DNA of 64,000 bases from Candidatus Aenigmatarchaeota archaeon (GTDB lineage Archaea; Aenigmatarchaeota; Aenigmatarchaeia; GW2011-AR5), in NCBI GenBank assembly GCA_016180945.1, contig JACPAG010000002.1:128210-192209 (forward strand), read 5' to 3'. Position 1 is the first letter of the stretch, and every line of letters starts with the position of its first letter. The notes beneath the pieces are model-generated. The model ran no database searches and was not told where the DNA came from. It was given only the letters and a program-made list of their open reading frames with translations. The position numbers were made by a program, and so were the translations under genes. Shown here piece after piece: positions 9,511-48,522 of this stretch.

Positions 9511-10572
9511 TCACCGTGGTGTTTTGTACCAACCTATACGCCTGCCAAGGGCTTTTTTTATCAGAATGCTAATGAAAACTCCGATGAAAATAATCATTGC
9601 AAGCGTCAATGCCGGAAGAACCGCAATAATTTCGGTTTTCCTCAGGTGTCTGGCGGAAAGAAGGAGTACCGTGGATAAACCTGCAATGCCGGGTATAAGA
9701 AAGACCGGGTTTACGATAGCCAAAAGAAGAAACGCCGGAGTAAATACGTAGAAAAGGGCTATGAAAAACAGCGTTGCCGATAGGACGGGATTTGTTCTCA
9801 AAGACTTGTTTATCTCATGAAAGCTTCCTGCTCCCCATCTCTCCTGCTGCTTGAAGAAATGATTTAGTCTTTTCGGCGACTCCTCTACGCATAGAGCCCA
9901 TGGATTGAAGACCACCTTCTTTTTTGCTTTGTAAAGCTTGTAAGAAAGATTTATGTCCTCTGAAAGAACATTATCAAATTTACCGACCTCAATCAATACG
10001 TTCCTCTTTATAATATAGTTTCTTCCGACGACAAACGCCGTTCCCAGCACTGTCGAAACCCAGTAATTTGTGGCGTTCAGAAACAGCGTTTCAAGACGTC
10101 CTAGGATGGACATTGCTGTCCTGCCTTCTGCGATAACAATGCCTACAGATGCGTCACTATCGCCGATGGAAGAAAGCAGGTTCTTTATCGTCGATTTGGA
10201 TACCCTGCAGTCTGCGTCAATGAAATAAAGAAACTTTCCCTTTGCTTTATTCACAGCCATATTTAGTGCAGAGGCCTTTCCCTTTCCTGCCCTATCCATG
10301 ATTATACTGGCTCCGTACTTCCTGCAGATTTGTTTTGTAGCGCCGTCTTTGCTGCTGTCAACGATAATGATTTCCAGATTGCTATAGGACTTTTGCAGGT
10401 TTTTTAATGTCCGCTCTATTACTGTTTCTTCGTCCTTTGCGGGTATTATTACCGATACCCTGGGGGTTCCCGTATCTTTCAGTCGGGGCCTATACACGAT
10501 GGATGAAACCAGCATAATAAGATAGTTTGCTGCGATATAAACTGCAAACGCATACAATAGTCCATCAATCAC
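9511..10572 (-). CDS. Membrane-bound glycosyltransferase family 2 (processive-type motifs)
   Basis: IIPAKDEE, GKASALN, FIDAD, SED, QQERW (QxxRW), flanking TM helices. Confidence 0.9.
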   Translation of the reverse strand: MIDGLLYAFAVYIAANYLIMLVSSIVYRPRLKDTGTPRVSVIIPAKDEETVIERTLKNLQKSYSNLEIIIVDSSKDGATKQICRKYGASIIMDRAGKGKASALNMAVNKAKGKFLYFIDADCRVSKSTIKNLLSSIGDSDASVGIVIAEGRTAMSILGRLETLFLNATNYWVSTVLGTAFVVGRNYIIKRNVLIEVGKFDNVLSEDINLSYKLYKAKKKVVFNPWALCVEESPKRLNHFFKQQERWGAGSFHEINKSLRTNPVLSATLFFIALFYVFTPAFLLLAIVNPVFLIPGIAGLSTVLLLSARHLRKTEIIAVLPALTLAMIIFIGVFISILIKKALGRRIGWYKTPR

Positions 10573-10586
10573 AATTTCACCCTTAA

Positions 10587-10825
10587 TGCCCCCATCGGGA
10601 TTCGAACCCGAGCCTTAAGGTTTTAGCCGTTTTTCCGTCACAAGCAGAATGAGTGCATTCTGCTGTGCAGCAGAAGCTTTGCTTCTGCTTGCAACGCTTT
10701 TGCCGAGCAAAAGGGTTGGTCCGCAACCTCACGTCCTATCTGGAGCCTTCTTGCCCTTTTCTTTCTCCCAAGGGTCTTTCTTTTTGCGAAAAGAAAGAGG
10801 CTTATCCAAGCTAGACTATGGGGGC
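10587..10825 (-). tRNA. tRNA-Arg(GCG) with two introns (D-loop ~10739-10802; anticodon loop ~10622-10720)
   Basis: Acceptor GCCCCCA/TGGGGGC, T arm TCGGG-TTCGAAT-CCCGA, anticodon arm TGAGG-TT-GCG-GA-CCTTA; D-loop intron has BHB CT-TGGA-TAA-GCC/GGC-TCCA-GAT-AG. Confidence 0.88.
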
Positions 10826-10952
10826 ATCGATTCGATGCCTATAGCAATTGATTTATTCTACAATGCTTAAGTATGGTAAAAATTTTCGTCCTACTCATAC
10901 TTATTCTGAAGGACATAAGTTATCGAACATATTATAAATGTCCTTCAGGATA

Positions 10953-11000
10953 CCAGCAGAAAACGATGTTTTCTGTGGCGCCAGAGAGCTCTGCTCTCTG
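10953..11000. repeat. Paired-hairpin cassette
   Basis: GCAGAAAAC-gat-GTTTTCTGT and CAGAGAGC-tct-GCTCTCTG. Confidence 0.65.
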
Positions 11001-11083
11001 ATCATACCAAAGACATTTTTTGTTCAAAAATTAATGTCTTTGAGTATAAAAAGATTTTGAAAGAAGAAGGTAAGGATAAACAT

Positions 11084-26862: not shown

Positions 26863-27101
26863 CACATCTTCCTTATATACCACCGACTAATTCACGGAGA
26901 GCAGAACTCTCCTGAATTCCGCAGAAACCTCTGGTTTCTGACGGAAAGTCGGTGGTTTGCAAGACATCGAAGAACAAAATGTTCTTCGTTGTCTGCACGG
27001 AAGGAACTCCGTTCCTTCCTGTGTGAGAAGATGGGATCCAGATGAACATTGTATTTCATCCATGGTCTAAAGACCATGGTTTTCAATGTCCATCTTAGAT
27101 A
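26861..27101 (+). mobile_element. Family C element, 241-bp form with two paired-hairpin inserts
   Basis: Backbone nearly identical to 31230-31350; 56-bp insert at 26889-26944 and 64-bp insert at 26960-27023. Confidence 0.8.
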
Positions 27102-30749: not shown

Positions 30750-31014
30750 GGGCCGGTAGCTCAGTATCCATCCCTTTCTTTCAAAAGAAAGGTCTGGATC
30801 AACCCCAAAGAAATATGGAAAATATTATCTTCCATAGGAACATGGGGTTGATAAGGGCGAGAACCCTAGGTTCTTGCACTTATTGGGAATTGGTAGACTT
30901 CGGCGAGATGTTTGTTGCCGAAGTTCTCGTAAGAGCACTAGTCTTATACGACAGCTGAGCTGAAAAATAATCTAAGATAACTAGCGGTCGAGAGTTCGAT
31001 CCTCTCCCGGCCCA
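30750..31014 (+). tRNA. tRNA-Ile(UAU) with canonical 37/38 intron (30949-30978) and large hairpin-rich D-loop insert(s)
   Basis: Acceptor GGGCCGG/CCGGCCC, A73; anticodon arm CTAGT-CT-TAT-A^A-ACTAG; BHB central helix CTTA/TAAG; T arm GAGAG-TTCGATC-CTCTC. Confidence 0.85.
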
Positions 31015-43026: not shown

Positions 43027-43056
43027 CGAAAAAGTAGCTTGTCTTCGAAAAGCAAA

Positions 43057-43144
43057 GCATTCGGAGAATCAAAGATTCTCCGATGCATCAATGAGCTTTG
43101 CTCATTGCTTGTTTTTCGGGACATCAGAAACCGTAAGGTTTCTG
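43057..43144. repeat. Cluster of hairpin cassettes
   Basis: TCGGAGAATC-aaa-GATTCTCCGA; CAATGAGC-ttt-GCTCATTG; CAGAAACC-gtaa-GGTTTCTG. Confidence 0.7.
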
Positions 43145-43195
43145 CTTGCAGTCAAAAAGAAAGGATGTAAAAAATAATATGTGGTTTTGGGGAGA

Positions 43196-47800: not shown

Positions 47801-47914
47801 GGCCGCGGTGATGTAATGGCAGCATGAAGGCCTGTGGAGGTCTTTCTTAGGAAGAAAGCCCTAGAAAGAACCGCAGCATAGTCTTCCGTCGGGGTTCAAA
47901 TCCCCGCCGTGGCC
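47801..47914 (+). tRNA. tRNA-His(GUG) with encoded G-1 and a ~42-nt 37/38 intron (~47838-47879)
   Basis: G-1:C73; anticodon arm AAGGC-CT-GTG-G^A-GTCTT; BHB-like helix CTGT/GCAG. Confidence 0.9.
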
Positions 47915-48245: not shown

Positions 48246-48522
48246 ATGATATGCTCTGATATAGCAGACTTCTGAAGAAGTCTGCAGATTGCATAAATTG
48301 AAATTTATGCAATATAACTCTGACTAAAGTCAGGGGTTTCCTTGAGCATGGCACAAGAAGGAACATAGTTCCTTCTGTGCAGAAGGACTAACAAGTCCTT
48401 CTTGCATCCCAAAGACATTGTATTTCACAAGAAAGACCTGAAAGGTCTTTCTGTGCAGGAAAATCTTTGCTTTTCCTTGCATCACACGACTAAAGTCGTG
48501 TGTTTTCAATGTCTTTGAGGAT
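48246..48522 (+). mobile_element. Family D element, 277-bp form with three paired-hairpin inserts
   Basis: Backbone of 26744-26862 interrupted at ~48264, ~48352 and ~48429 by hairpin pairs. Confidence 0.78.

Follow-up and report, generated by a model that had tools for sequence, protein, structure and literature searches.

A tRNA-Arg(GCG) intron in a Candidatus Aenigmatarchaeota genome: a probable composite of two small dispersed DNA repeats, one of them a putatively mobile double-hairpin cassette

The gene for tRNA-Arg(GCG) lies on the minus strand of the window, the whole 64,000-nt stretch of Candidatus Aenigmatarchaeota DNA analysed here, and is interrupted by two introns. The source assembly consists of 9 contigs (0.99 Mb, 45% GC, 84% complete). 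Groundwater metagenomes contain the stretch, and the nearest named relatives are groundwater Candidatus Aenigmatarchaeota MAGs. The gene and the parts of its second intron are as follows.

10587..10825, minus strand: tRNA-Arg(GCG) gene with two introns (hand parse, and ARAGORN on the joined exons)
10804-10825, 10721-10737 and 10587-10621, minus strand: the exons of the gene (hand parse)
10738..10803, minus strand: intron 1, 66 nt, in the D-loop (parse and fold)
10622..10720, minus strand: intron 2, 99 nt, at the canonical position 37/38 (parse and fold)
10692..10718, minus strand: core hairpin of intron 2, with a 4-bp base, a C.C mismatch and a 7-bp stem (fold)
10639..10693, minus strand: type-I double-hairpin cassette of intron 2 (covariance model R1, 61.2 bits, E 1.4e-12)
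10641-10691, minus strand: the 51-nt element proper, with TG on either side (10692-10693 and 10639-10640)
10622..10638, minus strand: tail of intron 2 (comparison with core-only introns)

The joined exons amount to 74 nt, which ARAGORN folds into a standard tRNA-Arg(GCG) cloverleaf, and they are collinear with the intronless orthologue in genome G013. On the raw gene ARAGORN called a tRNA-Gln(ttg) with a 148-nt intron. We rejected this call, which would leave a 93-nt ‘tRNA’ and is an artefact due to the presence of the second intron. The assembly at the gene is right, as judged from the contigs of several groundwater runs: those of three runs cross 10300-11035 with zero differences, and in a fourth run the gene is found in two overlapping contigs. 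The contigs of these four runs contained no intron variant or within-population polymorphism at the locus. Intron 1 has inside it a 10-bp hairpin that is matched by three non-tRNA places in the genome (96% over 24 nt). Intron 1 is bounded by a direct repeat of 4 nt and intron 2 by one of 3 nt, so that the splice positions are ambiguous by 4 and 3 nt, respectively. The core introns of relatives are likewise bounded by a direct repeat, of 2 nt.

The genome encodes the splicing endonuclease EndA in a 211-aa open frame (G000:C3:37601-37879, where G000 is the genome that contains the window; PF01974, 98.7 bits). In the minimum-energy fold of the intron 2 junctions a 7-bp helix is followed by a 2x2 loop, and a canonical bulge-helix-bulge is absent from this fold. 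Pairing of the intron 2 tail with the anticodon loop by hand gives three of the four pairs of a bulge-helix-bulge centre. The splice motif of intron 2 would be a relaxed bulge-helix-bulge at best.

Intron 2 is made of three parts, namely the core hairpin typical of the lineage, the 51-nt cassette of two hairpins and a tail that is specific to the tRNA. The first part of the tail is the conserved end of the core, and its last bases are tRNA-specific and able to pair with the anticodon loop. The cassette consists of two adjoining 9-bp hairpins, each with a 3-bp base helix and one bulged base (an A on the 5′ side of the first hairpin and a T on the 3′ side of the second). The loops are 3-5 nt long and a 4-nt junction is common to both hairpins, the same layout as in the intergenic units. 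A preliminary description of this DNA had presented the intron as three stacked hairpins, and both sequence and fold agree with it. The description had also equated the three with cassettes found between genes. This holds for hairpins 2 and 3, which form one unit (10639-10693), but not for hairpin 1, which is the conserved intron core.

The genome is rich in such hairpins. We counted 652 perfect hairpins (stem of 8 or more, loop of 3-8) genome-wide versus about 85 expected, and contig C2 alone has 140 versus 17-22 in Markov simulations. The crude non-coding 17% of the genome contains 410 of the 652, and a 3-bp base with a 1-nt bulge is present in 152 of these 410, compared with ∼3% by chance. 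Tandem pairs are ordered without exception, with the 5′-bulged hairpin first, the 3′-bulged hairpin second and a junction of 4-7 nt. Strict two-hairpin units number 61 in our list, with sub-types that differ in base and junction. The size of the family is ∼60-70 copies per genome, and the copies are mainly in spacers and within other repeats. The ends of the cassettes are a YR dinucleotide plus C-A, the stems are variable, and the layout is identical when read from either strand. Intergenic elements in the window that are referred to below are these.

26958..27023, plus strand: intergenic cassette with an extra hairpin nested in the loop of its first hairpin
43028..43161, plus strand: one copy of a multi-hairpin module (134-155 nt), intergenic; the D-loop intron of the tRNA at G000:C7:49808-50129 is 97% identical
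48352..48481, minus strand: two intergenic type-I cassettes (48352-48406 and 48426-48481), both training copies of the covariance model
62304..62584, plus strand: intergenic array of three cassettes (62304-62358; 62464-62519, a training copy; 62531-62584)

The nested-loop form of the first of these is also found at G000:C2:21501-21566 and C4:139164-139229; elements stack within one another.

The covariance model R1 was built from an alignment (A2) of 19 cassettes, all of them intergenic and of a single sub-type and none taken from a tRNA. A2 had been rebuilt from a single sub-type because the MAFFT alignment of mixed sub-types (A1) was too ragged for a model. On the structure that we specified for A2, 99.7% of the cells were paired, 75 were changed on both sides and one was a G-U. 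When R1 was run over the window with filters off, the intron cassette was the best match outside the training copies, at 61.2 bits with an E-value of 1.4e-12. Perfect double hairpins of other sub-types scored 10-23 bits with the same model. The preliminary description had named, as the outcome that would speak against it, a model of intergenic cassettes that scores the intron no better than shuffled hairpins; the scores of 61.2 bits for the intron and 10-23 bits for unrelated double hairpins are far from that outcome. Three spacer cassettes of G000 match hairpin 2 of the intron at 90-94% identity. The stems of the 43 copies outside the training set contain 918 Watson-Crick pairs and 10 G-T pairs (∼99% Watson-Crick). 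An asymmetry between G-U and A-C mismatches can indicate the RNA strand, but the mismatches here are too few for such use.

We also compared the introns of the other tRNA genes. Three further genes in the window had been said to carry the same hairpins.

30750..31014, plus strand: tRNA-Ile(UAU), with long D-loop inserts; hairpins and modules common with non-tRNA DNA, no type-I cassette
47802..47914, plus strand: tRNA-His(GUG), whose intron is one plain hairpin related only to a tRNA-Glu intron; no cassette
57972..58135, plus strand: tRNA-Arg(CCU), whose intron lacks a cassette and is without homologues in the rest of the genome

For the introns of tRNA-His and tRNA-Arg(CCU) the assignment fails. 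R1 gave no significant match in either, and by blastn the former is related only to another tRNA intron and the latter to nothing. For tRNA-Ile(UAU) one part stands: R1 found no significant type-I cassette, while blastn found other modules that the gene has in common with non-tRNA DNA.

A motif-based list contains ∼40 tRNA genes in G000, most of them with inserts. Using blastn against the genome itself, we obtained non-tRNA matches for 18 of the 34 insert-bearing tRNA genes. The D-loop intron of the tRNA at G000:C7:49808-50129 is 97% identical over 134 nt to positions 43028-43161 of the window, and it has two further spacer copies (92% over 155 nt). A tRNA-Lys and a tRNA-Gly gene match C3:18040-18133 (96% over 94 nt) and C2:99093-99165 (97% over 73 nt), respectively.

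The ∼35-nt core hairpin is the usual intron body in G000. It occurs in at least 10 tRNA introns, where it starts 0-3 nt past the 5′ splice site, and one copy is in a T-loop. The element is also present outside tRNAs, in spacers, gene leaders and a 23S rRNA variable region and after the stop codon of a protein gene. This census was made with a tighter regular expression than its first version, which gave mostly false matches in coding DNA. In the 23S rRNA variable region (G000:C8:203212-203330) a core element is accompanied by a double-hairpin cassette. A 6-bp helix closes this insert and a 6-nt direct repeat flanks it; it may represent either an rRNA intron or an expansion segment. At the 5′ ends of the genes for L30e and L4 (G000:C7:37789-37817 and C7:145982-146010) the core is antisense, and reading it in frame gives one identical 12-residue peptide in both genes. 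A gene for tRNA-Glu(CUC) at G000:C4:126840-127010, which was missed both by ARAGORN and by a T-arm search, has a core-type intron within its T-loop, and its 37/38 intron is the one related to tRNA-His (47802-47914).

Using intron 2 as a DNA query against 70 genomes of the order, we found that core, cassette and the start of the tail recur as a whole module at 77-85% identity. The module occupies the 37/38 intron of tRNA-Ala(CGC) in G020 and G047 and of tRNA-Glu(CUC) in G042. Outside tRNAs it was found in G003 (in two places, one of them between two long same-strand frames), G047 and G042, and these spacer copies have no T-arm-like motif within 400 nt and no Rfam tRNA match. The stem sequences of the module copies differ through paired changes. 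Hairpin 2 alone matched many places in G026, G034 and G060. The tRNA-Ala(CGC) gene of G000 has no 37/38 intron. At position 37/38 of tRNA-Arg(GCG) the genomes of the family differ as follows.

G013, G021, G022: no intron
G008, G010: core hairpin and tail, without the cassette
G001: variant core (plus a core in the T-loop)
G009, G023, G056, G057: unrelated intron of 45-60 nt
G000 only: core and cassette

A comparison of orthologous tRNA introns for presence or absence of the cassette, which the preliminary description had proposed as a check, thus shows variation from no intron through core only and unrelated sequence to core plus cassette, among relatives that are distant and none of which is of the same genus. 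Analysis with R1 detected cassettes in 39 of the 70 genomes of the order, in some of them by the dozen, with 31 of 43 in family f1, 6 of 6 in f3, 1 of 2 in f5 and 0 of 18 in five other families. Neither G010, whose intron is core-only, nor G013, which lacks the intron, has a cassette anywhere in its genome by the same model. The core of the G000 intron is 90% identical to that of the composite in G042 and 83% to that in G003, versus 78 and 59% to the core-only Arg introns. Since the core is nearest to composite copies of other genera, and since the composite also occurs in tRNA-Ala, tRNA-Glu and spacers, it probably reached tRNA-Arg as one unit, although core identities computed from such short sequences give only a hint. 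In G026 a cassette-bearing repeat (C29:7701-10753, locus L030; cassette at 1501-1553) lies within a frame that runs for more than 1000 codons without a stop; it may have inserted in frame into a giant gene.

Most spacer cassettes occupy a fixed place within larger repeats, and for at least 10 different host contexts cassette-free copies are also present in the genome. An empty site consists of the left flank, a single YR dinucleotide (TG/CA, CG or TA) and the right flank. In a filled site the element is between two copies of the YR dinucleotide, and the ends of the element are a 4-nt inverted repeat. In 26 of 29 distinct cassettes the left and right flanks are identical and are the reverse complement of the middle of the inner junction. 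Shuffling gave 3.3 such cassettes on average and 11 at most, a comparison in which related copies are not independent. In the sub-types with junctions of 5 and 6 nt, the empty sites keep 1 and 0 nt. Given this complementarity between flank and junction, the ‘3-bp base helices’ are the flank plus the terminal base, paired with the junction. The intron fits the rule: the core-only intron of G008 has one TG at the place where G000 and G047 have TG, the element and TG. The cassette is nested in the core at a TG step. Larger host repeats carry many cassettes along, and consequently there are fewer independent insertions than copies. The choice of insertion over deletion at this locus rests on paralogues and distant orthologues because there are no same-genus relatives and no local polymorphism.

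We also searched the genome, which is 84% complete, for enzymes that could move such elements. For a Y1/TnpA (HUH) transposase we obtained one 21-bit partial match, which is noise: a 56-aa frame without HUH context. No TnpB, serine recombinase or IS110 recombinase was found. A 420-aa reverse transcriptase with an IGNLTSQ motif is encoded at G000:C8:66-2392 (locus L066). A diverged copy of the peptide that ends the upstream ORF at its C-terminus is found at the N-terminus of the reverse transcriptase ORF, and the locus looks like a diversity-generating retroelement with template and variable repeats. We set this enzyme aside as support for a route through RNA; it resembles that of a diversity-generating retroelement.

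We believe, with a probability of roughly 70%, that intron 2 is a composite of two small non-coding DNA repeats, in which the cassette is a mobile DNA element that is nested in the core and tolerated through splicing. The cassette would be non-autonomous and would move as DNA, probably by way of a single-stranded folded form in which the inner junction pairs with the flanks. With its outer ends joined, the sequences predict a closed dumbbell-like rod composed of a hairpin, a short central helix with two single-base bulges and a second hairpin. Such an element would land wherever an insert is harmless, for instance in a tRNA intron; this site would be harmless because the endonuclease excises the insert in full and the hairpins, folded on themselves, leave the tRNA undisturbed. 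The composite may later have spread as a unit among tRNA genes and spacers. We favor an element at the level of DNA, kept foldable as only foldable copies propagate, because its stems are nearly all Watson-Crick paired, its layout reads the same on both strands and the core is antisense to mRNAs.

The idea, put forward in the preliminary description, that introns are landing sites for the intergenic cassettes gains support from the R1 match, the core-only orthologues and paralogues, the filled and empty sites and the cassette-free genomes G010 and G013. To call these landing sites neutral is too simple and is doubtful. Introns have 7.7 hairpins per kb, compared with 2.4 for crude non-coding DNA and 0.29 for coding DNA, and the core is itself a dispersed element. 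A density ∼3-fold that of spacers points to selection, or to introns that are built from such elements, rather than to neutrality.

Selection is central to an explanation in which the hairpins are functional RNA modules, serving for example in protein binding or as folding aids in splicing and in mRNA leaders, and are retained in introns and spacers alike without being mobile DNA. Strong covariation of the stems and arrays directly upstream of start codons are in accord with it. RNA modules would, however, be expected neither to lack G-U pairs almost completely nor to have a layout that reads alike on both strands. Copy numbers vary patchily between close genomes, and individual sites can be with or without a copy; in addition, copies are nested in one another and one is inside a long open frame in G026. 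We therefore consider RNA modules unlikely.

The preliminary description had offered the reverse direction as its alternative, with introns as the source of the cassettes. Archaeal introns are released as circles. Circular RNA in Archaea has been surveyed (PMC3326292). Under this alternative, excised circular intron RNAs, or parts of them, would be reverse-transcribed and re-integrated, seeding the spacers. The density of hairpins peaks in introns, the core follows the 5′ splice site by 0-3 nt in every tRNA and the genome encodes a reverse transcriptase, all as would be expected from such a process. However, the only reverse transcriptase resembles the enzyme of a diversity-generating retroelement, with a template and target repeat of its own, and the core is antisense to mRNA at two ribosomal-protein genes. 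The cassettes are also within non-intron repeats at ≥10 sites, where they follow a flank rule of the DNA type, and G-U pairs are almost missing from their stems. An origin in introns is possible for the core and is disfavored and unlikely for the cassette, and we regard the route by reverse transcription of circles as quite improbable. The remaining explanation, that any stable intron folds into stacked hairpins and resembles spacer DNA by accident, is in accord with the His and Arg(CCU) introns, which are plain hairpins without relatives outside tRNAs, but is already refuted for intron 2 by its 61 bits with an intergenic-only model (10-23 bits for unrelated perfect double hairpins) and by its sequence homology with copies in spacers, both of the same genome and of others.

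How archaeal tRNA genes acquire their introns is an open question, and we have here intron sequence with copies outside tRNAs that are up to 97% identical. With those copies, a precise insertion signature and a series of none, core and core plus cassette, intron gain becomes testable by sequence data and simple biochemistry. A broader extension of the preferred reading, in which the cassette is a mobile DNA element, is tentative: tRNA introns in this DPANN lineage might arise by insertion of tiny hairpin DNA elements without a transposase (the ∼35-nt core and the 51-nt cassette), with the target dinucleotide set by pairing with the inner junction and the endonuclease merely filtering the survivors. 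If true, archaeal endonuclease-spliced introns would for the first time have an identified donor pool, and the process would probably be a new mode of DNA movement.

Transposed tRNA introns are known from Thermoproteales (Fujishima et al. 2010, summarised in PMC4090602). As presented in that summary, the case implies that introns are gained through DNA-level copying and are filtered by the splicing motif. Copying among tRNAs is inferred there without a donor or a mechanism, and no donor pool outside tRNAs is known to have been described for that group. A 2026 preprint on Asgard archaea found no route of intron arrival (10.64898/2026.10.13.758758). The present case is similar to that of Thermoproteales in that related introns are in different isoacceptors, the composite being found in Arg(GCG), Ala(CGC) and Glu(CUC) in four genomes. 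It differs in that the lineage belongs to DPANN, copies are also present in spacers, gene leaders and 23S rRNA, and the cassettes are nested with an insertion rule. A literature search on hairpin repeats or intron families in DPANN or Aenigmatarchaeota returned nothing on point.

Outside the Archaea, the cassette can be compared with palindromic elements of mitochondria. Paquin et al. reportedly described double-hairpin elements in the mitochondria of Allomyces in 2000. The GC clusters of yeast mitochondria (GC42) are palindromic, have flanking repeats of 2-3 nt, are found in introns as well as spacers, can merge and are not associated with any known enzyme (PMC4478555). The cassettes share with both kinds of element short hairpin repeats, short flanking repeats, a location in spacers, introns and variable rRNA regions, and nesting. 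The likeness is one of behavior only, and common descent is unlikely. Unlike the mitochondrial elements, the cassettes are on an archaeal chromosome, have stems that are purine-rich on the 5′ arm rather than GC-rich and keep a fixed layout of two hairpins with single-base bulges. Their flank is also complementary to the inner junction, and a flank of 2, 1 or 0 nt tracks a junction of 4, 5 or 6 nt. The cassette would be a compact, rule-bound mobile unit with no known enzyme that behaves much like the long-unexplained palindromic elements of mitochondria.

Similarities to the REP/REPIN-RAYT system and to hairpin MITEs derived from IS200/IS605 (PATEs) include imperfect palindromes, an extrahelical base, spacer arrays and near-scarless insertion. 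In IS608, guide and cleavage site pair at the foot of a hairpin, and the flank pairing of the cassette recalls this arrangement. In contrast to REP/RAYT and IS200/IS605, no Y1 transposase or TnpB gene was found in the 84%-complete genome, and the two hairpins are tandem mirror images that make the unit alike on both strands. The cassette also lacks the GTAG or CGTC head of REP/REPIN (cf. PMC3733652). It differs from a classical MITE, a DDE derivative, in having termini of 4 nt only and a flank repeat that is not of fixed length, being 2, 1 or 0 nt according to the junction.

Close to the tRNA-Arg(GCG) gene, positions 11004-11048 of the window are a repeat of ∼45 nt that was present at 20-30 times the local contig depth in the four groundwater runs. 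Other contigs join position 10953 to 11006 without the 52-nt cassette (10954-11005) and represent the empty form of the host repeat.
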